Positions 5,167-62,029 of a stretch of DNA of 64,000 nt are shown piece after piece; the stretch's first letter is position 1; every line of letters begins with the position of its first letter. The position numbers and the translations under genes were made by a program. The stretch covers positions 67,458,001 through 67,522,000 of the forward strand of contig NC_086108.1 of NCBI RefSeq assembly GCF_963921235.1. Reading direction: 5' to 3'. This stretch comes from Mobula hypostoma. Lineage: Eukaryota. Under the pieces are notes generated by a model. It made no database searches, had not been told where the DNA came from, and was given only the letters and a program-made list of their open reading frames with translations.

Positions 5167-8100
5167 AGAGTTTAAACTAAGAAGTGGGGGGCGGGGGAGG
5201 AGACGAACTGAAATTACAAGGATGGAGTTAAAGGGAAAGAGAGAATAAGAAAAGTTAAGAAAGACAACAGAATTAACAGGGCAGAAAGCTCAGGAAGGGA
5301 TCGGAGAGTATGGCCAAGTGCAATAGGGATCAATGTGAAAGGTGAGGGGAGTAATGGATTAAAAGTCTTAAATATGAATGCACGAAGTATAAGAAATAAA
5401 GTGGATGAGCTTGAGGCTCAGTTGGAAATTGGCAAGTATGATGTTGTAGGAATAATAGAGACATGGCTGCAAGAGGACCAGGGCTGGGAAATGAATATTC
5501 AAGGATATACATCCTATTGAAAGGACAGACAGGTGGGCAGAGGGGGTGGGTTGGCTCTGTTGGTGAGGAATGAAATTCAGTCCCTTGCGAGCGGCAACAT
5601 AGAATCAGGAGATGTAGAGTCAGTATGGATAGAACTGAGAAATTGTAAGGGCAAAAAGTCCCTAATGGGAGTTATCTACAGGCCCCCAAACAGTAGCCTG
5701 GATATAGGGTGCAAGTTGAATCAAGAGTTAAAATTGGCATGTCGCAAAGGTAATGCTACGGTTGTTATGGGGGATTTCAACATGTATGTAGACTGGGAAA
5801 ATCAGGTTGGTACTGGACCCCAAGAAAGGGAGTTTGTGGAGTGCCTCCGAGATGGATTCTTAGAGCAGCTTGTACTGGAGCCTACCAGGGAGAAGGCAAT
5901 TCTAGATTTAGTGTTGTGTAATGAACCGGATTTGATAAGGGAACTCGAGGTAAAGGAGCCATTAGGAGATAGTGACCAAAATATGATAAGTTTTAATCTA
6001 CAATTTGAGAGGGAGAAGGGAAAATCGGAAGGGTCAGTATTACAGTTGAACAAAGGGGACTATGGAGCCATGAGGGAGGAGCTGGCCAAAGTTGACTGGA
6101 AAGATACCCTAGCAGGGATGACAGTGAAACAACAATGGCAGGTATTTCTGGGAATAATACAGAAGGTGCAGGATCAGTTCATTCCAAAGAGGAAGAAAGA
6201 TTCTAAGGGGAGTAAGGGGCGACCGTGGCTGACAAGAGAAGTCAAGGACAGTATAAAAATGAAAGAGAAGAAGTACAGCATAGCAAAGATAAGCGGGAAG
6301 CCAGAGGATTGGGAAACTTTTAAAGAGCAACAGAAGATAACTAAAAAGGCAATACGGGGAGAGAAGATGAGGCATGAAAGTAAGCTAGCCAAGAACATAA
6401 AGGAGGATAGTAAAAGCTTCTTTAGGTATGTGAAGAGGAAGAAATTAGTTAAGACCAAGGTTGGGCCCTTGAAGACAGAAACGGGTGAATTTATTATGGG
6501 GAACAAAGAAATGGCAGAGGTATTGAACAGGTATTTTGAATCTGTCTTCACTAGGGAAGACACAAACAATCTCCCAGATGTAATAGTGGCCGGAGGAACT
6601 GAATGAAATTCACATTAGGCAGAAAATGGTGTTGGATAGACTGATGGGACTGGAGGCTGATAAATCCCCAGGGCCTGATGGTCTGCATCCCAAGGTACTT
6701 AAGGAGGAGGCTCTAGAAATCATGGACACATTGGTAATCATTTTCCAATGTTCTATAGATTCAGGATCAGTTCCTGTGGATTGGAGGGTAGCTAATGTTA
6801 TCCCACTTTTTAAGAAAGGAGGGAGAGAGAAAACAGGGAATTATAGACCAGTTAGTCTGACATCAAGTGGCGGGGAAGATGCTGGAGTCAATTGTAAAAG
6901 ATGAAATAGCGGCACATTTGGATAGCAGTAACAGGATCGGTCCGAGTCAGCATGGATTTATGAAGGGGAAATCATGCTTGACTAATCTTCTGGAAATTTT
7001 TGAGGATGTAACTATGAAAATGGACAAGGGAGAGCCAGTAGATGTAGTGCACCTGGACTTTCAGAAAGCCTTTGATAGGGTCCCACATAGGAGATTAGTG
7101 GACACAATTGGAGCACATGGTATTGGGGTAGGATACTGACATGGATAGAAAATTGGTTGGCAGACAGGAAACAAAGAGTAGGGATTAACAGGTCCCTTTC
7201 AGAATGGTAGGCAGTGACTAGTGGGGTACCACAAGGCTCAGTGCTAGGACCGCAGCTATTTACAATATACATTAATAATTTAGATGAAGAGATTAAAAGT
7301 AACATTAGCAAATTTGCAGAATACACAAAGCTGGGTAGCAGTGTGAAATGTGAGGAGGATGTTATGAGAATGCAGAGTGACTTGGACGGGTCAGGTGAGT
7401 GGGCAGATGCAGTTTAATGTGGATAAATGTGAGGATATCCACTTTGGTGGCAAGAATAGGAAGGCAGATTACTATCTGAATGGTGTCAAGTTAGGAAAAG
7501 GGGAAGGACAATGAGATCTAGGTCTCCTTGTTCATCAGTCACTGAAAGTAAGCATGCAGGTACAGCAGGCAGTAAAGAAAGCTAATGGCATGTTGGCCTT
7601 CATAACAAGGGGAGTTGAGTATGGGAGCAAAGAGGTCTTTCTGCAATTGTACAGGGCCCTGGTGAGACCACGCCTGGAGTACTGTGTGCAGTTTTCGTCT
7701 CCAAATTTGAGGAAGCACATTTTTGCTATTGAGGGAGTGCAGCGTAAGTTCACGAGGTTAATTCCGGGGATGGCGGGACTGTCATATGTTGAAAGATTGG
7801 AGCGACTGGGCTTGTATACACTGGAATTTAGAAGGATGAGAGGGGATATGATTGAAACATATAAGATCATTAAGGGATTGGATACGCTAGAGGCAGGAAA
7901 CATATTCGCGATGTTGGGGGAGTCCAGAACCAGAGACCACAGTTTAAGAATAAGGGGTAGGCCATTTACAACAGAGTTGAGGAAAAACTTTTTCACCCAG
8001 AGAGTTGTAGATCTGTGGAATGCTCTGCCTCAGAAGGTAGTAGAGGCCAATTCTCTGGATTCTTTCAAGAAAGAGTTAGATAGAGCTCTTAAAGATAGTG

Positions 8101-22014: not shown

Positions 22015-22150
22015 AACACGAGATTCTGTGGATGCTGGAAATCTTGAGCAATATACACAAAATGCTGGAGGGACTCGGCAAGTTCGGCTGCATCTATGGA
22101 GGGAAATAAACAGTCAACATTTCTGGCTGAGACGCTTCAAAAGGGCTGCT
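22015..22150 (-). mobile_element. Penelope-like 3' terminal fragment, degenerate
   Basis: acacgagattctgtggatgctggaaatc.. matches the termini at 34384, 43848 and 51906. Confidence 0.6.
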
Positions 22151-23904
22151 GATAACATTTTACAAATTTTTAGTTGATTGTTCAGGCTTCATTGAATGTT
22201 TTTGAACATCTAGGTTATTCACAGGCATTAACTGCAAATATTAGCCAGCTATCAAAGGTCTTACTCTGCAGTTTGACAAGTGGGGCTTGCTCTGGCCCAC
22301 CCACATAATGGCATTGCATTGCGTGACAGCCTTCTGCACTCGGGGCTGCCTCACTTCACACAGGACAGTTTCCTGCAACAAGTCAATGCTGGCAAATGTA
22401 GAAAAGGTAAAACAACTCTGACCACATAGGTCATGTTCTTTTTTCACTGTACGAAGAAAAATCAGCTGTAAGAACCAAAATCCTCAAATAGTCATTATTC
22501 CTATTGAGCTTTTATCTCTGGTTAGGACTGTAAGAAAATCTGTTTAAACTCACTGGCTACAAAGCAGCTGAATTAATAGTGGGTTCACAACCAGTCTTTA
22601 ATCTCTGGTCCATACTAAATTCCTTGTGTTTTCAGAAGCATGTTTTAAAAAGTAGATTTAAGCTCCAATACTAAATTATGCAAAGAATGTTTTCCCCTTT
22701 ATACAAGTAAATGGTGGTACTATTTGGCCTTTAGCCAAAGCTAACATCTCCACAGACTTTCTAATGCCTGTATGTTCCTCTTACCTCAGTGCAGTGATCC
22801 TGCCATATAGTTCCAGAAAGGCTTTTCCTGATATCAACTGTCCCCTCTGCCTTTTAAAAATCTCATAGCTATAATAGCAAAGGGCTGTTCATGTTCAAAA
22901 CTTACAAGCATAATAGTTTCTCCAGCAATCTAAAGTGCATCTATTTCTGCTTTAAGTGTTACTTCTTCTGCATGTCAGGCAACAACAAAATGTACTGCAA
23001 TTGGTGGTACTTTCCTTGATGTAAGTAAAACGACTGCTTATTTTGTTTGTCGTGTTAAATCCCAATTTTTTGTCTTATTCAATACAATTCTAGAACAAGC
23101 AGGTACTCTAGGAGTGCATCACTCAAACTAAATTAGCCAGGTGGTCTAAATGAATATAAAATAAATTGTTTTATAAGTAGATGAACATGGAAAGGTAGAA
23201 TTGGAAGACCATTTTACTCTGAGACTCTGAAGCCTGTGAAGATAAGAAACAAATGTGGCTTAAAGGTATTGTGAAATATTTTGTTATTCTGAGTTCAGAC
23301 AGATTTTTTTCATATTTTAGGTACAAGATGCCATTGCAGAGAAAAGTAAATACTTTGTCTTTATTCATGCATGAGTAAATAAAGTGTTTCAGCCACTTTT
23401 GTATTATCCCAATGATACGATATCCCACTGTTTTATTAACCCTCAACAAAATTTACCCTTTTATGGAAGGAGTTTCTTATAGAATGTACCTTTAGTCAGA
23501 CTGTTAATTAATTACACATCTTTAGCCCTCTGCTGTTTGGCCAAAATGTTAAAATCAACTTCTTCAGTTCTACAACATAAAGAGATGGCGTTCAGTTCCG
23601 TTCCCATTGAAAAGTCTTCTTGGAGCCAGGTTTCTGTTGAGAAAAAGAGCACCTCTTTTATGACTCTGCACTGAAACAAGCCCACACCTTTATTTGGAGA
23701 TATAAGTGGAAATCCCCAATGTTCCATGATATCTTTCTACGTGTCCACAACTTTCTTTCCAAGCTTCAGGTACACAGCAAAGGGAAACTTCATTTAAGCT
23801 TCCATAGGCACAGAAACTCAAGGTGCACTTCTAAATAGGAAAGCTCTCTATATATTTGTGCTTCACTATCTTGCATATTCTTTTCAGATGTAATACTTGA
23901 TTAA

Positions 23905-33115: not shown

Positions 33116-34477
33116 GAACAATAAAGCATGTCATTAGGCCCACAGTAAAATATTAAAAAGGATGATGGTAGTCATGGAGTTTGAAATAACTACCTTCTTA
33201 GAAAGAAAAAGAAACACTGAAAGGAGCAAGAATTACAATAGCTTGAGGAGAGGATTAAGCAATTGTAAGAAGCAGAGAAGATTCTCCTTATTCACACAAT
33301 TTATTTCCTTATTCCCATACCGCTCCCTCCCCTACTCAAGCAGTATCACTTTCAAAAATGATGGAAATATACAGACCCCAAAATCAGTAACTTCAAGGGA
33401 TTATTAATTCCAATCACAACTACCATGAATCACACCTTGTCTGCTCACCACATCAGGTGTTTGGTAGATTTTCCATTTCTCAGCTCCACTTCCTGCAGTT
33501 TCCAGTGGCTATGGAGGAAGAGGTCATTGTGGAACTCTCCTTCCACTCTTATTCATCACAAGTATTGCCTGCTGAAGACCGTGGTTTTCTCCAAGGACTT
33601 TGCTGGGCGTTTATTTCTGAGCTTTGGGAAACATTTTCTTTTTCTGTGATTTTCCCAATGAGGCAGCACCACGATTGTCTGCCTTTACATGGGTGAATTT
33701 CTATTTAATGGGAGTGTTTCTGTCAGAAACACATGAATTTTCATTGAGCCTCACTGCAGGAGAATAGGTTGAGACTCCGTAGGATGAAGTAAGGACAGAA
33801 AGCTCAACACAGCAGAAACTTATCCCAAAGAGGAGTGTTGTGTATTTAATATGGATCTCAAGAAAGTGAGATTGTTGAATGCCTAAGAGATGGCTTTCTA
33901 GAGCAGTTTGTTGTTGAGCCTACTAGGGGATCAGCAATATTGGATTGGGCGTTATATAATGAACTGGAGGCGATTAGGGAGCTTAAGGTAAAAAAAAACT
34001 TTTAGGAACCTGTGATCACAACATGATTGTGATCAACTTGAAATTTCATAGGGAGAAAGCAAAGTCTGATGTAGCAGTATTTCAGTGGAGTAAGGCAAAT
34101 TACAGTTGTATGAGAGAGGAGTTGGCCAAAGTAAACTGGAAGGAGCTGCTGGTAGGGATGTCAGCAGAGCAGCAATGGTGTGCATTTCTGGGAAAAAATG
34201 AGGAAGGTGCAGGACATGTGTATTCCAAAAATGAAGTACTCAAATGGTAAAATAGTACAACCATGGCTGATAAGGGAAGTCAAAGCTATTGTAAAAGCAA
34301 AAGAAACGACATACAACAAAGCAAAAATTAGTGGGAAGATAGAGGATAGGGAAGTTTTTAAAAACGTATAGAGAGCAACTAAACAACAGGAATTCTGCAG
34401 ATGCTGGAAATTCAAGCAACATACATCAAAGTTGCTGGTGAACGCAGCAGGCCAGGCAGCATCTCTAGGAAGAGGTA

Positions 34478-34515
34478 CAGTCGACGTTTCAGGCCGAGAC
34501 CCTTCGTCAGGACTA
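34478..34515 (-). ncRNA. Minimal type I hammerhead ribozyme motif
   Basis: Minus strand reads UAGUC-CUGACGA-AGGGUCUCGGCCU-GAAA-C-GUC-GACUG. Confidence 0.75.
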
Positions 34516-34536
34516 ACTGAAGGAACTAACGTCAGT

Positions 34537-34574
34537 TAGTCCTGACGAAGGGTTTCGGCCTGAAACGTCGACTG
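34537..34574 (+). ncRNA. Minimal type I hammerhead ribozyme motif
   Basis: Stem I UAGUC/GACUG; core CUGACGA 34542-34548; stem II AGG..CCU; GAAA 34562-34565; GUC triplet 34567-34569. Confidence 0.75.
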
Positions 34575-37262
34575 TACCTCTTCCTAGAGATGCTGCCTGG
34601 CCTGCTGCGTTCACCAGCAACTTTGATGTAGAGAGCAACTAAAAATCATCAGAAAGGAGAAAATGAAATATGAAAGCAAGCTAGCAAATAATATCAATGT
34701 GGATAGCAAAAGTTTTTTCAAGTATGTTAAAAATTAAAGAGAAATGAGGGTGGATATAGGACTGCTAGAAAATGAGGCAGGAGAAATAATAACGGGGGAC
34801 AAGGAGATGGCTGCTGAAATAAATGAATATTTTGCATCAGTCTTCACTGTGGAAGATACTAACAGTATGCCTGATGCTGTAGTGTGTGAAGGAAGAGAAG
34901 TGGGTGCAGTTATAGTTACAAGAGAGAAGGTGCTCAAAAAGCTGAAAGACGTAAAGGTACATAAGTCACCCAGACTAGATGAACTGAACCCTAGGGTTCT
35001 GAAAAAGCTAGTGTTAGAGGTTATGGTGGCATTAGAAATGATCTTTCAAAAATCACTGGACTCTGACATGGTGCCAGAAGACTAGAAAATTGCAAATGTC
35101 ACTCCACTCTTTAAGAAAGGAGGAAGGCAGCAGAAAGGAAATTATAGACCAGTTAGCCTGACCTCAGTAGTTGGGAAAATGTTAGAGTCAATTGTTAAGG
35201 ATGAGGTGATGGAGTACTTTGTGACACAGGACAAGATAGTACAAAGTCAACAGGGAAAATCCTGCCTGACAAACTGTTGGAGTTCTTTGAGGAGATTACA
35301 AGTAGGATAGATAAAGGGGATGCAGTGGATGTTGTATATTTGGACTTTCAGAAGACCTTTGACAGGTTGTCACACATGAGGCTGCTTATCAAGTTAGGAG
35401 CCCATAGTATTACAGGAAAGTTACTAACATGGTTAGAGCATTGGCTGATTAGTAGGAGGCAGCAAGTGGGAATAAAAGGATCCTCTATTGGTTGGCTGCC
35501 AGTGACTAGTGGTGTTCCCCAGGGTTCGGTGTTGGGACCACTTCTTTTTATGCTGTATGTAAACGATTTAGATGACGGAATAGATGGCTTTGTTGGCAAG
35601 TTTGCAGATGATATGAAGATTGGTGGAGGGGCAGGTTGTGTTAAGCAAACAGGTAGGATGCAGAAGACTTGGATGGATTAGGAGAATGGGCAAGAAAGTG
35701 GCAAATGAAATACAATGTTGGAAAATGCATGGTCATGCACTTCAGTAGTAGAAATAAATGTGCAGATTATTTTCTAAACAGGGAGAAAATCCAGGAATCT
35801 GAGATGCAGAGGGACTTGGAAGTCGATGTGCAGAACACCCTGAAAGTTAACTTGCAGGTCGAGTCGGTGGTGAGGAAGGCAAATGCCATGTTGGCATTAA
35901 TTTCAAGAGGTCTAGAATACAAAAGCAAGGATGTGAAGCTGAGGCTTTATAAGGTACTAGTGAGGCCTCACCTCGAATATTGTGAACAGTTTTGAGCCCC
36001 TTATCTTAGAAAAGATGTGCTGGCATTGGAGAGGCTCCAGAGGAGGTTCACAAGGATGATTCCAGGAATGAAAAGGTTATCATACAAGGAACGTTTGACG
36101 GCTCTGGGTCTGTACTCGCTGGAATTCAGAAGGATGAAGAGGGATCTCATTGAAACATTTTGAATGTTGAAAGGCCTAGACAGAGTAGATGTGGTAAGGA
36201 TGTTTCCCATGGTGGGACAGTCTAGGACAAGAGGACACAGCCTCAGGATAGAAGGGCGCCCTTTCAAAACAGAGATGGAAGAAATTTCTTTAGCCAAAGA
36301 TGGTGAAATTGTGGAATTTGTTGCCATATGCAGCTGTGGAGGCCAGGTGTATTTAAGGCAGAGATTGACAGGCTCTTGATTGGACACGGCATCTAAGGTT
36401 ACAGGGAGAAGGCCAGGAACTGGGGCTGAGGAGGAGAAAAAAAGGGAACAGCAATGATTGAATGGCAGAGCAGACTCGATGAGTCAGATGTTCTAATTCT
36501 ACTCCTATGTTTTATGGTCTTATGGTCTAATATTTCAGTAATATTTGAGTAATATTGTAAATATATTGTTTGATTAAGCATTCTTTGTTGTTTACATGAT
36601 TCATTACAGGTTGTATGTCAAAGTATGTAAATAGCATATGTCATTACATCACCACATCATATGTGAGCCCCTCACTAAAGTAAAATGAAGAAGACAAGCT
36701 TTTGCGGGCTCCTATGTCTTTCTCTCGATTGATTTCTGGAAAACGTAACAAGGGGGAACCCTCAAAGTGACTTGATAATTTCATCACAGAGGAGCAAAGA
36801 GAAACTGGTGAAAATAAAGCTCAGGATGATCACAAGAATTTCAAAAAAGCAAAATAAAGTAGATAAAATTGAAGGGGAAAAGAAATGTAGCAGTGCAGTG
36901 GAGATTAGGAAATACAAGATCTATAGACACTCACAGATAGTATCTTTTTCCATTTTAGTTATTTTGCAGGCAAAAAATTCTGCTGCTCTAAGGATTTCTA
37001 CAGTGTTTTCTTCTTCCCATTTTTGCCTGCTCCTTTCTACATCCATACAAACTTCAGGAAAATCATCGACAATGTATTTTATCAGCTTTGTATATGCAAG
37101 TCAAAGAGGTATAACCTCACAGAAAACCTTACATAAAGAAAATTTGCATTTCACTTCTTGACAGATCGTTGCAGATGGAAAGGACTGCAGGAGTATATAG
37201 TACCATCACTTCAAAGTCCTTCTATACAGTATATCCTTTACCATTCTGTTATTAGTTTTTAT

Positions 37263-37579: not shown

Positions 37580-37593
37580 TTATTAGTTTTTAT

Positions 37594-38053
37594 AGAACAT
37601 AGAACATAAAACATAGAATAGTACAGCACATTGCAGGCCCTTCGGCTCACAATGTTGTGCCGACCCTCAAACCCTGCCTCCCATATAACCCCCCACCTTA
37701 AATTCCTCCATATATCTGTCTAGTAGTCTCTTAAACTTCACAAGTGTATCTGCCTCCACCACTGACTCAGACAGTGCATTCCATGCACCAACCACTCTCT
37801 GAATAAAAAATCTTCCTCTAATATCCCCCTTGAACTTCCCACCCCTTACCTTAAAGCCATGTCCTCTTGTATTGAGCAGTGGTGCCCTAGGGAAGAGGCG
37901 CTGGCTGTCCACTCTATCTAGTCCTCCTATTATCTTGTACAACTCTATCATGTCTCCTCTCATCCTCCTCCTCTCCAAAGAGTAAAGCCCTAGCTCCCTT
38001 AATCTCTGATCATAATTCATACTCTCTAAACCAGGCAGCATCCTGGTAAATCT
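37594..38053 (-). mobile_element. CR1 3'-terminal about 460 nt
   Basis: ORF 37667-38041 is nearly identical to the C-terminus of ORF 38493-39503. Confidence 0.95.
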
Positions 38054-39567
38054 GGCTGCTCAATGAGGCGAGGGAGGAGATTGCTGATCCTCTGGCTAGG
38101 ATCTTTATGTCCTCGTTGTCCACGGGAATGGTACCGGAGGATTGCAGGGAGGTGAATGTTGTCCCCTTGTTCAAAAGAGGTAGTAGGGATAGTCCGGGTA
38201 ATTATAGACCAGTGAGCCTTACATCTGTGGTGGGAAAGCTGTTGTAAAAGATTCTTAGAGATAGGATCTCTGGGCATTTAGAGAATCATGGTCTGATCAG
38301 GGACAGTCAGCATGGCTTTATGAAGGGCAGATCGTGTCTAACAAGCCTGATAGATTTCTTTGAGGAGGTGACCAGGCATATAGATGAGGGTAGTGCAGTG
38401 GATGTGATCTACATGGATATTAGTAAGGTATTTGACAAGGTTCCACACGGTAGGCTTATTCAGAAAGTCAGAAGGCATGGGACCAGGGAAGTTTGGCCAG
38501 GTGGATTCAGAATTGGCTTGCCTGCAGAAAGCAGAGGGTTGTGGTGGAGGGAGTACATACAGATTGGAGGATTGTGACTAGTGGTGTCCCACAAGGATCT
38601 GTTCTGGGACCTCTACTTTTCGTGATTTTTATTAACGACCTGGATGTGGGGGTAGAGGGGTGGGTTGGCAAGTTTGCAGACGACACGAAGGTTGGTGGTG
38701 TTGTAGGTAGTATAGAGGATAGTCGAAGATTGCAGAGAGACATTGATAGAATGCAGAAGTGGGCTGAGAAGTGGCAGATCGAGTTCAACCCGGAGAAGTG
38801 TGAGGTGGTACACTTTGGAAGGACAAACTCCAAGGCAGAGTACAAACTAAATGGCAGGACACTTGGTAGTGTGGAGGAGCAGAGGAATCTGGGGGTACAT
38901 GTCCACAGATCCCTGAAAGTTGCCTCACAGGTAGATAGGGTAGATAAGAAAGCTTACGGGGTGTTAGCTTTCATAAGTCGAGGGATAGAGTTTAAGAGTC
39001 GCGATGTAATGATGCAGCTCTATAAAACTCTGGTTCGGTCACAATTGGAGTACCGTGTCCAGTTCTGGTCACCTCACTATAGGAAGGATGTGGAAGCATT
39101 GGAAAGGGTACAGAGGACATTTACCAGGATGCTGCCTGGTTTAGAGAGTATGCATGATGATCAGAGATTAAGGGAGCTAGGGCTTTACTCTTTGGAGAGA
39201 AGGAGGATGAGAGGAGACATGATAGAGATATACAAGATACTAAGAGGAATAGATAGAGTGGATAGCCAGCACCTCTTCCCCAGGGCACCACTGCTCAATA
39301 CAAGAGGACATGGCTTTAAGGGAAGGGGTGGAAAGTTCAAGGGGGATATTAGAGGAAGGTTTTTTACTCAGAGAGTGGTTCGTGTATGGAATGCACTGCC
39401 TGAGTCAGTAGTGGAGGCAGATATACTCGTGAAGTTTAAGAGACTACTAGACAGGCATATGGAGGAATTTAAGGTGGGGGGTTATATTGGAGGTAGGGTT
39501 TGAGGGTCGGCACAATATTGTGGGCTGAAGGGCCTGTACTGTGCTGTACTGTTCTATATGCTATATG
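38054..39567 (+). mobile_element. CR1 RT and 3' end (inverted relative to its 5' half)
   Basis: EAREEIA, NYRPVSLTS, KVFDKVPH; 336-aa open stretch with [10 protein letters not shown] and KFADDTK; tail at about 39550. Confidence 0.95.
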
Positions 39568-41460
39568 CTAATGTATTTTAACAACTCCAACACCTCCTCT
39601 CCCTTAATATCAACATGCTCCAGAACATCAACCTCACTCATATTGTCCTCACCATCATCAAGTTCCCTCTCATTGGTGAATACCAAAGAGGAGTACTCAT
39701 TGAGGACCTCACTCACTTCCACAGCCTCCAGGCACATCTTCCCACCTTTATCTCTAATCGGTCCTACCTTCACTCCTGTCATCCTTCTTCACATAATTGA
39801 AGAATGCCTTGGGGTTTTCCTTTACCCTATTCGCCAAGGCCTTCTCATGCCCCCTTCTTGCTCTTCTCAGCCCCTTCTTAAGCTCCTTTCTTGCTTCCCT
39901 ATATTCCTCAATAGACCCATCTGATCCTTACTTCCTAAACCTCATGTATGCTGCCTTCTTCCACCTGACTAGATTTTCCACCTCACTTGTCACCCATGGT
40001 TCTTTCAACCTACCATTCTTTATCTTCCTCACCGGGACAAATTTATCCCTAACATCCTGCAAGAGATCTCTAAACATCAACCACATGTCCATAGTACATT
40101 TCCCTGCAAAAACATCATCCCAATTCACATCCACAAGTTCTAGCCTTATAGCCTCATAATTTGCCCTTCCCCAATTAAAAATTTTCCTGTCCTCTCTGAT
40201 TCTATCCTTTTCCATGATAATGCTAAAGGCCAGGGAGCAGTGGTCACTGTCCCCCAGGTGCTCACCCACTGAGAGATCTGTGACCTGACCCGGTTCATTA
40301 CCTAGTACTAGATCTAGTATGGCATTCCCCCTAGTCGGCCTGTCAACATACTCTGACAGGAATCCGTCCTGGACACACTTAACAAACTCTGCCCCATCTA
40401 AACCCTTGGAAGTAATCAGGTACCAATCAATATTAGGGAAGTTAAAGTCACCCATGATAGTAACCCTGTTATTTTTGCACCTTTCCAAAATCTGCCTCCC
40501 AATCTGCCCCTCTGTATCTCTGCTGCTGCCAGGGGGCCTATGGAATACCCCCATGGAGTAACTTCTCCCTTCCTGTTCCTGACTTCCACCCATATTGACT
40601 CAAAAGAGGATCCTGCTACATTACCAACCTTTCTGTAGCTGTAATAGTATCCCTGACCAGTAATGCCACCCCTCCTCCTTATTTTTCCCCCTCTCTATCC
40701 CCTTTAAAGCACTGAAATCCAGGAATATTGAGAATCCATTCCTGCCCTGGTGCCAGCCAAGTCTCTGTAATGGCCACTACATCATAATTCCATGTATGTA
40801 TCCAAGCTCTCAGTTCTTCACCTTTGTTCCTGATGCTTCTTGCATTGAGGTACACACACTTTAGCCCTTCTATCTTACTACCTTTACACAGTTTATTCTG
40901 CTTCTCTTTCCTCAAGGCCTCTCTATATCTTAGATCTGGCTTTACTCCATGCACTTCTTTCACTGCTCTATCGCTCCGGGTCCCATCCCCCTTGCAAATT
41001 AGTTTAAACCCTCCCGAACCATGCTAGCAAACCTACCTGCAAGGATATTGCTCCCCGTCAAGTTCAGGTGCAACCCATCCAATCTGTACAGGTCCCACCT
41101 TCCCCAGAAGAAATCCCAATGGTCCCAAAATCTAAAACCCTGCTCCCTGCACCAACTCCTCAGCCATGCATTCAACTGCCTTCTCCTCCAATTCTTACCG
41201 TCACTCACGTAGCACTGGCAGCAATCCTGAGAACGCCACCCTTGAGGTCCTGTTCTTCAGCCTTCTGCCTAGTTCCTGAAACTCACACTTCAGGACCTTA
41301 TCCCTCTTCCTGCCTATGTCGTTGGTACCAACATGTATCACGACTTCTGATTGCTTTCCCTCTCGTACCAGGATGTCGTGCACCCGGTCAGGGACATCGT
41401 GGACCCTGGCACCCGGGAGGCAACAAACCATGTGGGTATCCTTCTCACGTCCACATTTTC
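39568..41460 (-). mobile_element. CR1 5' half (ORF1 SGNH esterase, ORF2 APE)
   Basis: MVCCLPGARV..VVIHVGTND; YRLDGLHLN; YLNARSIRNK..ETWL; MGDFNFP..GDSDH; ends at EEVLELLKYI. Confidence 0.95.
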
Positions 41461-43847: not shown

Positions 43848-44541
43848 CACAAACAAGAGAAAATCTGCAGATGCTGGAAATCCAAGCAACACACACAAAA
43901 TGCTGGAGGAACTCAGCAGGCTAGGCAGCATCCATGAAAAAGCACAGTCGACGTTTCGAGCCAAAACCCTTCGGTGGGACCGGAGAAGAAAAGCTGAGGA
44001 GTGGATTTGAAAGGTGGGGGGAGAGGAGAGAGAAATGCCAGGCGATAGGTGAAACTTGGAAGGGGAGGGATGAAGCAAAGAGCTAGGAAGTTGATTGGTG
44101 AAAGAGACAGAAGGCCATGGGTGGGCAAGGAGATAACATGAGGGAGGGATAAGGGGATGGGGGAGGCATTACTGGAAATTTGAGAAATCGATGTTCATGC
44201 CATCAGGTTGGAGGCTACCCAAACAGAATATAAGGTGTTGTTCCTCCAACCTAAGTGTGGCCTCATCACGACAGTGGAGGCCATAGATGGACGTATTGGA
44301 ATGGAAATGGGAAGCGGAATTAAAATGGGTGGCTACAGGGGGATTCTGCTTGTTCTGGCAGACAGAGCATAGATGCTCGGTGAAGCAGTCTCTCAATCTA
44401 CATCGAGTCTCACCGATATACAAGAGGCCACACCAGGAGCACCAAGCACAGTATATGACCCCAGCAGACTCACAGGTGAAGTGTCCCCTCACCTGGAGGG
44501 ACTGTTTGGGACCCTGAATGGTAGTGAGGGAGGAGGTGCAG
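43848..44541 (-). mobile_element. Penelope-like element 3' fragment with GIY-YIG endonuclease
   Basis: FTCESAGVIYCAWCSWCGLLYIGET..RL..FTEH..VATHFN..EQHLIF.LG.LQPDGMN; 3' UTR carries a decayed hammerhead (core CCACCGA). Confidence 0.9.
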
Positions 44542-49570: not shown

Positions 49571-51905
49571 AAATTTACAACTCTATATAAAGTGGAAATA
49601 CTATATTGTGGAAAAGGACTGCAGATGCTTTGAATAAGAAAAAAATGAATTTGCTGTAGACCCTCAGCAGGACAGATACCAGACATGTAGAGAGAAACGG
49701 AGTTAATGTTTCAGGCCCATAATTTTGTATTAGCCCCCACAGCTGCTGCCTGACATGATGAAGTCTAGTAATTTCTGATTTTATATCAGTTATCATTGCT
49801 ATTGTGGAGTTAAAATGCAATTTGAATGCTGTCTCTACAATAGATTTACAGGGCAATGTTGTAAGGGTTGTTATCTCTTCTATAGACTTATCCGAGTGAT
49901 AACGCATTGGGTGATGTTTTAGATGCTATGATATTCCTCTTCCATTTGGTGCTGTCATATTTAATCCAGCATTGACTGTGAATAAAAGACATGGATTGTT
50001 TACCTTTAATGGAAAATATCACAATATCATAACATTTTAGATTGGCACTCTCAGTCCAGGTTCCAACAGGTACAAATCTGTACAATAAAATTTTACAAGT
50101 AATTGGGAAACACATCATTGAATAGGCAAGTTATCCTTTCCAAGGTTTGATGGTTTGATGATTTGATAGAGAAAAAAGTGAAAGAACTGGAGAGAAAGTG
50201 TATGTCATGACTCTGACCCAAATCTTCCACCCACAACTGTTGTACTAGTTAGGAAGGTAGGAATGGGCCAGAGATGACTGGCTAGGTTGTCACTCCTGCT
50301 TCTATTCCAACTGCAGCTTCAACTTCCATTTTGTAATCAAGGGCATTCAAGGTCTCATAGATTCTATTCTACTAATAATACAACCAGTTTCCCTCCTGCA
50401 TCAAGTTTGCCTTTATTTTATATCAATGCCAGAGGCCCAATTGTTAAGACTTAGATGCAATGATTTTGTGCATTAGTGTGGGCAAATTCAGCGTTTTGCC
50501 TCACAGTAAATAGGTTCCATACCAAATTGGATTAATGCTATTTTAGTTATTAAAGAGTTTATTAATTTTTATGTACAATAATAAAGAACTAGATGAATGA
50601 AATAAACTATTGAAGCATAAAACAATTTTAAACTGTATAAATTAGATTCAAGTGGAAGCTATCAACCGAAAACTGAATGTATCAAATATTAGAATGCTTC
50701 ATTAAATTTCTGTTGCTGAGTAGGATTGTAATTTGTTTTTACTGATGTTTTTTTGTGACCTAAGGTAATATTATAAACATTCTGATTTAGAATATGCAAG
50801 CATGTAGGAACTAAATAAACACTAGTTTTCCTGGAGAATTGTTAATGTGCATGATGCTCAAAATAATCACTCTGATTGTTTCAAGTGTCATTATAGATAA
50901 TTGCAAACTTTTATTTAGTACATTGAGAATTTGTTTTTGTTTTACTTTGCAAGTAACAACATAACAATCAGGCATTTATAATGCTATAATTTTGCTTCTG
51001 GTCCAAAAGGTTTCTCTAGACAATAGAACTAGAATATGATACTACCTCCAGACATCTACATACATTCTATCTGTGCAAGCAAAAATTATTAGGAAAACAT
51101 TCAGATATTCCACACTAGCCCATTAGAGATCAAATACTGCTCTGCTTTAACCAGAAATCCATGAAGAGGGCATAAAAACAATTCTGACAGAGGGCCCAAA
51201 GCTGAAACTGTTAACTGTTTCTTGTTCCATAGAAGCTGTTTGATCTGCCAAGTGTTAGCAGATTAATTAAGCATAGAACATAAATAGTACAACAGAGGAA
51301 TAGACCCTTTGGCCCACAATGCCTGTGCCAACTATGATGCCGTATTAAGCCAAATCTCTTCTGCCTGTATATGATCCATTTCCTGCATATCCATGTATTT
51401 ATCTAAAAGCCTCTTAAACGCCACTATCATATTTGCTTCCACCACTACCTCTAGCAGTCCATTCCAGGGAACCACCACTCCCTGTGCAATAAAAAATGCA
51501 TCGCATACTTCTTTTAAACTTTACACCTCGCACTTGAAATTCACCTCCTCTAGTATTTGACATTTAACTTGAGAAAAAAGAAAGATCCTGACCATATCTA
51601 TGCCTTATAAATTTATTAACTTATATCAGATCTCCCCTTTGCCTCCAACTCTAGAGAAAACAATTAAAATTTGTTCAACTTCTTGTAGGTCATAGCCTTC
51701 AATCCAGGCTGCAGCCTGGTAAACAATTTCTTCATCATTTTCAAAGCCTCCATATTCTGTCTATAATGGGGCAACCAGAACAGCACACAATACACCAAGT
51801 ACAGTCTAACCAAAGTTTTATATACCTGCACTGTGACTTCCTTAATCTTATACTCAGGGTCCTGACAAGAGGACCATGTGCCTTTTTTAACATCTTATCT
51901 CCTGG

Positions 51906-52849
51906 CAAACACGAGGAAATCTGCAGATGCTGGAATTTCAAGCTACACACATAAAAGTTGCTGGTGAATGCAGCAGGCCAGGCAGCATCTCTAGGAAGAG
52001 GTACAGTCGACGTTTTGGGCCGAGACCCTTCGTCAGGACTAACGGAAAGAAGAGCTAGTAAGAGATTTGAAAATGGGAGGGGGAGGCGGAGATCCAAAAG
52101 GATAGGAGAAGACAGGAGGGCGAGGGATGGAGCCAAGAGCTGGACAGTTGATTGACAAAAGGGATATGAGAGGATCATGGGACAGGAGGCTTAGGGAGAA
52201 AGAAAAGGGGGGCGAACCCCAGAGGATGGGCAAGGGGTATAGTGAGAGGGACAGAGGGAGAAAAAGGAGAGAGAGAGAAAAAGAAAGTGTGTGTATATAA
52301 ATAAATAAATAACGGATGGGGTACGGGGGTACCAGGGGGAGGTGGGGCATTAGCGTGAGTTAGAGAAGTCAATGTTCATGTCACCAGGTTGGAGGCTACC
52401 CAGACGGAATATACGGTGTTGTTCCTCCAACCTGAGTGTGGCTTCATCTTTACAGTAGAGGAGGCCGTGGATAGACATAGCAGAATGGGAATGGGACGTG
52501 GAATTAAAATGTGTGGCCACTGGGAGATCCTGCTTTCTCTGGCGGACAGAGCGTACCCCTCGTACCCCATCCGTCCCCCCTCCCCCTCTTCTTTTTCCCT
52601 AGGCCTCCTGTCCTATGATCCTCTCATATCCCTTTTGCCAATCAACTGTCCAGCTCTTAGCTCCATCCCTCCCCCTCCTGTCTTCTCCTATCATTTCCGA
52701 TCTCCCCCTCCCCTCCCACTTTCATATCTCTTACTAGCTCTTCTTTCAGTTAGTCCTGACGAAGGGTCTCGGCCTGAAACGTCGACTGTACCTCTTCCTA
52801 GAGATGCTGCTTGGCCTGCTGCATTCACCAGCAACCTTTACGTGTGTGG
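51906..52849 (-). mobile_element. Penelope-like 3' fragment with an inverted pseudo-LTR
   Basis: GIY-YIG C-terminus (VATHFN..EEQH.IFRLGSLQP) at about 52350-52550; 52553-52849 is an inverted copy of its 3' UTR. Confidence 0.9.
52751..52788 (+). ncRNA. Minimal type I hammerhead ribozyme motif
   Basis: UAGUC-CUGACGA-AGGGUCUCGGCCU-GAAA-C-GUC-GACUG with an intact core. Confidence 0.75.
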
Positions 52850-53071
52850 CTTATCTACTTACATGGCCGCTTTCAGGGAGATATCAGCTTGGACCCAAGA
52901 TCCTTCTGTACATCATTGTTATTAAGGATCTAACCATTAACTGTATACTTATTCCTTACATTTGACCTCCAAAAGTGCAGCACTCACATGTGCTTAGATA
53001 TGAAAACTATCTGCCATTCTTCTGCCCATACAGTATCTATAACTAGACCACATGCTACTGCATCCTCTGAT

Positions 53072-60762: not shown

Positions 60763-61309
60763 TAATGGGCAAGCCACATCATTTGCATGCCCAGCATCTG
60801 TCACGGTCCCAATCGGTTATTCTCTGGTTCCCTTTAAATTTCCTTTGTGTCACGATCGGGACCGTTGACTCCTTGTTTTCCTTTAATTCATTGTTTCCCC
60901 GTGTTTCTTAGGCTCTGTAATTAAAGGCACTTGATTCTCAACTGAGCAGTCAGTGTATAGTGTCGGGCTTACAGCTGCTCGGCGCTAGACCGTCACCTCA
61001 CGTCACCAAACCAAGTGCCAGCAAGTCACCTTGCCGGAGTGCGACAAGTTACATCGCCGGAGCAAGACTAGTCTCCTCTCCGAAGCGAGGGCCAGTAAGT
61101 CACCTCTCCTCGCCGGAGCGAGCCCGTCAAGTTACCATGCCTGAGCGACCCTGCTACGCTAACTCGCCAGTGCGGGTCCGTCAAGTTAACCCGTCGGAGC
61201 GAGTCAAGAGCCGTTGTCTGTAGTTCCAGGGCTGCGTCGAGCGCTCGCCGCTACTTGGAGCCACTTCACGACAAGATAAAGAACTGTCTATTGTAGTATG
61301 GTTTTGTCT

Positions 61310-61950
61310 CTTTGTGTCCTCGCCTCCGCTGGGTAGGTCTGGCCATTTGCTGCTACCCTGAGTTGGAAACTGTCTCATGTCCTCGCCTCTGCTGGGTAGA
61401 TCAGCCATTTGCTACTATCCTGAGTTGGGAACTCTCTCTTTGTGTCCTCGCCTCCGCTGGGTAGGTCCGGCTGGTTGCCACTACCCTAAGTGGGGAACTG
61501 TCTCTTCATGTTCTGTGTTCTGTGTTCTGTGTTCTGTATCCAAGGAAGAGTCCCGGCTCTGTGCCCTGCGTCCAAGGAGAGTCTCGGCTCTGTGTCCTGT
61601 ATCCAAGGAAGAGTCCCGGCTCTGTGTCCTGTGTCCAAGGAGGAGTCCCGGCTCTGTGTCCTGTGTCCAAAAAGAGTCCCGGTTCTGTGTCCTGCGTCAA
61701 AAAGGGTCCCGGTTCTGTGTCCTGTATCCAAGGGAGAGTCCCGGCTCTGTGTTCCGATGTCCCAAGTACCAAGTCCAGCCTCCGATGTTCCGAATTCCAA
61801 GTTGAGGCTCCGATGTTCCAAGTTCCAAGTCCCAGTCCAAGTCCCGAGTTCCCAGACCAAGCCCAAACCCAAGTCCAAGTCCGGGTCCCAAGTTCCCAGG
61901 CCAAGCCCAGGCCCTGAGTCCCAGTCTAAGTCCAGGGTCCAAGCCCAACT
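61310..61950. repeat. Compound minisatellite inside the LTR
   Basis: About three 60-65-nt units (TGTCCTCGCCTCCGCTGGGTAGGTC..), about seven 30-32-nt units (CTCTGTGTCCTGTATCCAAGGAAGAGTCCCGG), then CCAAGT-like 6-7-mers. Confidence 0.9.
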
Positions 61951-62029
61951 CCAGCCAGGCATATTCCCGCTTCAGCCTCATTCACTCCTTGATGTCTCTC
62001 TGTACAATCTTTGTTTCTCTGCTTTACCA

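Follow-up and report, generated by a model that had tools for sequence, protein, structure and literature searches.

What kind of sequence is the short, nearly perfect hairpin that interrupts a decayed retroelement in the ray Mobula hypostoma? The window analyzed here is a stretch of 64,000 nucleotides from contig NC_086108.1 (positions 67,458,001 to 67,522,000 of the forward strand, assembly GCF_963921235.1), and all coordinates below are counted from its first letter. Within it lies a 245-bp insert whose two inverted arms each carry a hammerhead ribozyme motif. A preliminary description, made from the sequence alone, had offered two origins for it: an extreme product of the process by which Penelope-like elements (PLEs) form inverted pseudo-long terminal repeats (pseudo-LTRs), or a mobile ribozyme unit resembling a miniature inverted-repeat transposable element (MITE). 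We find that the hairpin very probably arose when a high-copy, endonuclease-bearing (EN+) PLE, probably of the Neptune clade, recently inserted into a long interspersed nuclear element (LINE) that had already decayed, leaving a copy that was dead on arrival. In this reading the hammerheads simply travel with the pseudo-LTR as passengers, and the locus is an ordinary instance of a kind already described, not a new element. The layout of the insert, its target duplication, its family link, and the spread of junctions in the family are direct observations.

Each inverted arm has a length of 99 nt (34422-34520 on the left, 34532-34630 on the right), and the two are complementary at 98 of 99 positions, with the sole mismatch (34497/34554) inside loop II. 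Between them is an 11-nt centre, 34521-34531, which reads AGGAACTAACG. A 15-bp direct repeat, exact at 15/15 positions, flanks the structure on the + strand at 34369-34383, where its last 3 nt also match the family terminus, and at 34629-34643, so the insert is 34384-34628, or 245 bp. Such a repeat pair is expected by chance about 1e-5 times in a 40x40 box. When the insert and one copy of the repeat were deleted in silico, the flanks aligned continuously to all three host-LINE paralogues tested in the window (3/3), and the repeat is therefore a true target-site duplication. The insert ends match the target over 3 nt on the left and 2 nt on the right. Outside the hairpin, on the left side only, is a tail of 38 nt (34384-34421, - strand), which is the 3' end of the element and measures 41 nt when counted to the family end at 34381. 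The two insert ends thus sit 38-41 nt apart on the element.

The left arm (34422-34525, - strand) is a 5'-truncated pseudo-LTR end, in which 34521-34525 are parent sequence beyond the paired part. The right arm (34532-34628, + strand) is an inverted, tail-less, 5'-truncated copy that is identical to the left arm at 96 of 97 positions; its pairing runs on to 34630. The centre is composite. About 5 nt continue the parent sequence (4/5 match a longer family copy in the window, element 2, described below, and the BLAST alignment of the left arm with that copy stops at 34525), and the other 6 nt (34526-34531, unstranded) are filler; the fillers tabulated at other family junctions are 1-6 nt long. 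Over its first 10 nt, the centre repeats the neighbouring arm with one exception (9 of 10), suggestive of a local template switch. No frame of the insert is free of stops, and the longest open run spans ~63 codons. The + strand folds with an energy of -216.6 kcal/mol (z = -27.8), which none of 200 shuffles equalled. None of the 19 tandem-repeat rows of the window covers the locus. A microRNA precursor was considered and rejected, since the Rfam matches to mir-2766 and MIR2629 (32.5 and 21.8 bits, against a gathering threshold of 60) are far below the gathering score and represent hairpin noise.

Much of the preliminary description stands, including the 99-bp arms with one mismatch, the 11-nt spacer, the 15-bp target duplication, and the absence of an open reading frame (ORF). 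Its length of 245 bp is correct, but its right end at 34630 takes in 2 nt (34629-34630) that belong to the target duplication. "Almost a pure hairpin" is true of the arms and leaves the one-sided tail unnamed, and the spacer, treated there as one unit, divides into parent sequence and filler.

The family to which the insert belongs was identified from its other copies. Three further copies of this family end lie in the window, at 51.9-52.85 kb, 43.85-44.5 kb, and 22.0 kb; all three share the tail, and none has the focal centre. Element 2 (51904-52849, - strand) is a longer insertion with the same layout, having its tail on the left, inverted arms of 272 bp that are 92% alike, and a target duplication of 10 bp with one mismatch (51894-51903 / 52850-52859). 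It holds the C-terminal end of a PLE ORF, on the GIY-YIG endonuclease side (52290-52550, - strand), and this ORF end shares its strand with the left hammerhead of the element. The peptide from this ORF end, P0001, is 88% identical to the Mobula protein P0002; among 36 candidates it had 6 matches (75-88% identity), 6/6 of which bear the names Mobula or Hypanus, which points to a ray genome. A tblastn search with P0002 finds element 2 (E 3e-38) and element 3 (E 7e-60). P0002 has a GIY-YIG match of E 4.6e-4, slightly under the Pfam cut-off; the Pfam matches to RVT_1 and GIY-YIG in relatives are also just under it. Among 3112 candidates, 63 are longer relatives of P0002, and RVT_1 is annotated in most of these and GIY-YIG in some. 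Element 3 (43850-44537, - strand, limits from BLAST) is an older, non-inverted copy with the tail, a decayed hammerhead, and the PLE ORF end; no clear target duplication was found around it. Element 4 (22017-22151, - strand) is an old, solitary family end that keeps the tail; its target duplication of 15 bp (22002-22016/22152-22166, one mismatch) ends in AAA, as the focal one does. Membership of the insert in the PLEs is thus assigned from sequence, through the ORF end of its sister copies and not through the insert itself.

The parent PLE probably belongs to the Neptune clade. P0002 has a CX4CxxC linker, the region corresponding to which is absent from the window. A zinc-finger-like CX2-5CxxC linker lies between the reverse transcriptase (RT) and the endonuclease in Neptune and Nematis (PMC8557442), and Neptune and Poseidon are the widespread clades in the vertebrate sample of a retrozyme preprint (bioRxiv 10.64898/2026.07.22.740005). 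The linker together with the wide spread of Neptune in that sample makes this clade likely.

Some further features of element 2 were noted. Its arms (51940-52211 / 52582-52852) have diverged from each other by 8%, which exceeds the distance of either one to the focal arms (5-6/97 in the shared core), and judged from its sequence it is an older insertion. Its left hammerhead lacks G12 and has C at 11.1, and its right arm keeps the G-U pair. Immediately upstream of stem I, at 52730-52750 (+ strand) and in mirror image at 52042-52062 (- strand), are a branch-point-like motif, a pyrimidine tract, and CAG. The CAG at the 5' end of stem I is a possible splice acceptor in the parent; an intron ends at the same place in Penelope of Drosophila virilis (PMC4209133). 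The CAG is kept in both focal arms, which would imply an unspliced template.

Is the hairpin one of many identical copies or one of many different truncations? Contigs of 4 of 24 public runs were mapped onto 33950-35070 at 90% likeness. Summed depth is not copy number, and ratios were used. Across the left arm, the summed depth is 9-10 million in run X1, 6-7 million in X5, and ~0.6-0.75 million in X10; at 34530 the corresponding values are 760, 170, and 0. The centre is thus ~10^4-fold rarer than the arms in X1. Thirteen of the 15 joints listed (781 further) are arm-to-arm junctions, each at a different pair of places, and the empty site is not among the 15. No arm at these 13 junctions retains a complete hammerhead, although with this design arms longer than the reference cannot appear as joints. 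Junctions of the same class occur in runs of two other labelled organisms. Before 34381, 248 contigs of X1 and 226 of X5 diverge into unrelated A-rich flanks, so the family terminus is fixed. Contigs continuing past 34525 number 142 (X1), 104 (X5), and 24 (X15), and their consensus resembles element 2; X15 is RNA by guess only, and its coverage was not used as evidence of expression. The many different junctions and the rare centre point to many separate truncation events and not to one mobile MITE-like unit. The focal hairpin would be a single case within a range of fold-backs, each truncated independently. Of the two origins first offered, the mobile unit is therefore not supported, and the extreme product of inverted pseudo-LTR formation is supported by the tail, the arms, the duplication, and the link to a PLE endonuclease.

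Three other patterns appear in these contigs. Directly after 34514, 112 contigs (X1) and 108 (X5) depart, with a low consensus agreement of 0.36; this may be a truncation hot spot at stem I or may reflect other subfamilies with different upstream sequence. Two junction types, 34451/34601 and 34464/34588, are exactly symmetric with fillers of 5-6 nt; their depth rises to 190 in X1 and 249 in X5, clearly exceeding that of long contigs. They are candidates for re-copied stubs or recurrent junctions. Lastly, one of the 13 listed junctions begins at 34570, the first base past the predicted cut (+/-2 nt), which is too little to show cleavage in vivo.

The insert is younger than its host. The host is a decayed LINE ORF2 (approximate limits 33901-35678, + strand), recognized through its paralogues in the window and an RVT_1 match (E 1.9e-14 at 35205-35678). 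In-frame stops lie on both sides of the insert, and the host-LINE paralogue at 5521-6603 has an APE-type endonuclease domain. We take this LINE to be CR1/L2-like. Of the 40 difference rows listed, 27 are flank sites at which more than 90% of the X1 depth differs, and no such site is in the insert, where the only majority difference is at 34422 (81%). The exact duplication (15/15) and near-perfect arms (98/99), together with these flank differences, indicate the younger age of the insert.

Each arm contains a minimal type I hammerhead, on the - strand in the left arm and on the + strand in the right, and both point outward. The right-arm motif (34537-34574), which matches by sequence and descriptor, consists of stem I (34537-41/34570-74), CUGACGA (34542-48), an extra A (34549), stem II (34550-61), GAAA (34562-65), the ACGU palindrome (34565-68), and C17 at 34569. 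The left-arm motif (34478-34515), which matches by descriptor and pattern, has C3 at 34510 and C17 at 34483. The core boxes, stems I and II, the extra base after A9, and the palindromic 15.2-16.2 positions of the minimal type I class are all present. The closing pair of stem II is G10.1-U11.1 in both arms, not the G10.1-C11.1 pair that is highly conserved in minimal PLE hammerheads (PMC4209133). A custom minimal type I descriptor gave three matches in 64 kb (34542 +, 34510 -, and 52756 +) and none in 100 dinucleotide shuffles. Rfam returned no hammerhead match across E <= 1, and a pattern scan of metagenome contigs returned 0 loci. The full core that the preliminary description had placed in each arm is upheld by the descriptor, with a G-U closing pair in stem II; the hammerhead scan that it proposed succeeds in both arms with the custom descriptor and gives no hammerhead match with Rfam. 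Its scissile position, C17 at 34569, is correct as a prediction.

Are these ribozymes likely to work? By folding energies, forcing the hammerhead fold within the hairpin costs 75.8 kcal/mol, and 6/6 growing transcript prefixes fold as hairpin. The computed probability of the hammerhead fold is 4e-4 to 1e-3 for a single arm and 6e-6 with the spacer; these values represent secondary-structure energies only, with no tertiary contacts and no protein help. The ACGU duplex required for a dimer has -3.1 kcal/mol compared to -100.7 kcal/mol for sense-antisense pairing. Since the arms point outward, read-through from either flank transcribes the antisense arm first, and in any such transcript this arm would pair with the emerging motif and switch the ribozyme off. 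The ribozymes are most likely off within the hairpin, as the preliminary description had offered as one option and the modeled energies suggest, and a transcript of the locus, if any, would be ~99 bp of double-stranded RNA (dsRNA). Its other suggestion, cleavage through a trans dimer, appears unlikely for the focal copy because both read-through directions would make the antisense arm first. PLE promoters sit in the pseudo-LTR upstream of stem I (PMC8557442); this part is lost, and the insert thus probably has no promoter of its own. We regard it as highly improbable that the locus is functional, either as an active dimer-type ribozyme or as a selected hairpin yielding anti-PLE small RNAs. Both cores are intact, and a near-perfect 99-bp hairpin identical to an abundant family would be a plausible Dicer substrate. 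However, youth alone predicts intact cores, the hammerhead fold carries the cost of some 76 kcal/mol and is rarely adopted by a single arm, the ACGU duplex is far outweighed, and the G10.1-U11.1 pair deviates from the conserved one. Moreover, minimal PLE hammerheads show no cleavage as monomers and low cleavage as dimers (PMC4209133).

Two other explanations concern the hairpin as a whole. It is very unlikely that the fold-back itself is a non-autonomous, MITE- or retrozyme-like mobile unit re-copied in trans by the PLE protein. The insert does keep the entire hammerhead-to-tail segment, where the PLE protein binds and starts, 5'-truncated RNAs are still templates in vitro (PMC11167929), some junction contigs have 10-20x the depth of long contigs, and the depth of the centre is above zero in X1 and X5. 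Yet the rarity of the centre relative to the arms and the at least 13 other junction positions argue against such a unit, as do the lack of the centre in the other family copies of the window, the loss of the promoter-bearing region upstream of stem I, and a hairpin that buries everything except the tail. The least credible explanation is that the hairpin is a chimera of assembly or amplification. Palindromes are a known artefact class, and none of the pieces listed bridges the centre at the read level. Against this, the exact 15-bp duplication, the family-typical tail, the filler, and the one arm mismatch are not the products of a fold-back chimera, the layout recurs in element 2, whose arms have diverged by 8%, and the same class of junction appears in the two other labelled organisms.

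The reading as a dead-on-arrival PLE insertion also has points against it. The centre is bridged by 0 of the 32 pieces listed, and no listed contig spans the whole stretch, which leaves the locus itself without read confirmation. Some junction contigs have depths of 100-250 compared to 8-16 for the long X1 contigs listed, and several variant contigs cross 34529-34531 at depths of 46-122; more than one copy may thus exist of certain fold-back junctions. A full-length parent element did not turn up, and a blastx comparison of the segment from hammerhead to tail with 70 proteins gave no N-terminal match. The Neptune label is based on the linker motif of a relative and not on a tree. Finally, the start-site regions are GU-rich on the sense strand here, and an AC-rich stem-loop is described for the Poseidon element (PMC11167929). 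Because some junction depths look multi-copy, a further idea is left open, which we consider improbable: in rays, some PLE stubs that keep the tail and both start sites might be re-copied as a palindromic non-autonomous class, and the mass of hairpins might give dsRNA that silences the parent family.

How would a dead-on-arrival PLE insertion give this structure? The PLE endonuclease would make a 15-nt staggered cut in AT-rich DNA; a PLE protein has been reported to cleave both strands of such DNA and to start complementary DNA (cDNA) at two adjacent internal sites, the interval between which is the tail (PMC11167929). Reverse transcription would begin at the terminal start site of the element, the top-strand end priming through the 3-nt match. 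The template would be RNA uncut by the hammerhead because both arms run ~35-40 nt past the predicted scissile bond, and uncut RNA is the main template in the same report (PMC11167929). The first cDNA would stop after ~140 nt, a second, inverted copy would be made that ends 38 nt inside the terminus, and the two would be joined through the 6-nt filler. We lean slightly toward the view that the other nick primed the second copy, which began at the second internal start site. That the first cDNA folded back and primed itself, as proposed for inverted pseudo-LTRs that lie head-to-head, bear a 31-bp tail, and are flanked by duplications of 8-10 bp (PMC3846280), has a little under an even chance, and the data here do not separate the two. 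Arm asymmetry at the 13 junctions was considered as a test and dropped, since a short contig across a junction does not reveal on which arm the tail sits and since only arms shorter than the reference appear as joints.

By itself, the locus carries little weight, being debris in a dead LINE. Its value is that of a clean, young specimen that is legible at its two ends, at its centre, and in its target duplication and that records the copying of uncut RNA through the hammerhead. A genome with very many such junctions is a natural data set for PLE biology, and could serve two questions: is the inverted copy the result of priming at a second nick or of self-priming, and is the template ever cut in vivo by its hammerhead? 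If stubs were re-copied and their dsRNA silenced the family, the integration mechanism would build the element's own brake. The listings returned by our literature search name no paper about PLE hairpins in chondrichthyans or about this family in rays.

Two neighbouring structures were noted. An inverted pair of 468 bp, 91% alike (37585-38051 / 39119-39586), overlaps a 349-codon RT frame (RVT_1) and is probably an inverted LINE structure. A cluster of tandem arrays at 61305-61953, with periods of 66, 32, 28, and 6, holds several overlapping open frames; the one frame tested had no Pfam match.

How does the insert compare with known systems? MITEs are short, non-coding, fold-back sequences with a target duplication, and they have terminal inverted repeats and a fixed internal part in many copies. 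The insert shares the first four properties. In contrast, its repeat stops short of the left terminus with 38 nt outside, its arms are the 3' end of a retroelement, and lengths and centres vary between copies of the family. With the other junction positions and the rare centre described above, the MITE class was rejected. The non-LTR retrozymes (bioRxiv 10.64898/2026.07.22.740005) are likewise short, non-coding, and PLE-derived with a type I hammerhead, but they are head-to-tail tandems that permit dimer cleavage and circles. In the insert the two units are inverted and do not form a tandem array, and this class was also rejected.

The likeness to PLE systems is closer. Like the minimal type I hammerheads found in metazoan PLEs (PMC4209133), the focal motifs have CUGANGA and GAAA boxes, one additional base between 9 and 10.1, no true helix III, palindromic 15.2-16.2 positions, and a close partner on the opposite strand. 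They differ in having G10.1-U11.1 and not G-C and a helix II of only 4 bp, and only 32 nt separate their C3 positions, a shorter distance than the 100-700 bp given for such pairs. The Poseidon element PAc of Anolis (PMC11167929) also has ends a tail-length apart, an AT-rich target, and copies that run through the cut site. Unlike PAc, the focal family is probably of another clade, given the CX4CxxC linker of P0002, its start regions are GU-rich and not AC-rich, and its CUGACGA core has no ATG. The closest match is with the complex insertions of EN+ PLEs (PMC3846280; PMC8557442), which carry a one-sided tail of 30-40 bp. The insert has an inverted 5'-truncated copy, a tail in that range at one end, and a target duplication, and it shares with them head-to-head arms and a parent with RT plus a GIY-YIG endonuclease at the C terminus. 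It departs from them in its 15-bp target duplication, compared to 8-10 bp in the rotifer examples, and in its extreme truncation, with no ORF and arms that end 5-10 nt upstream of stem I.

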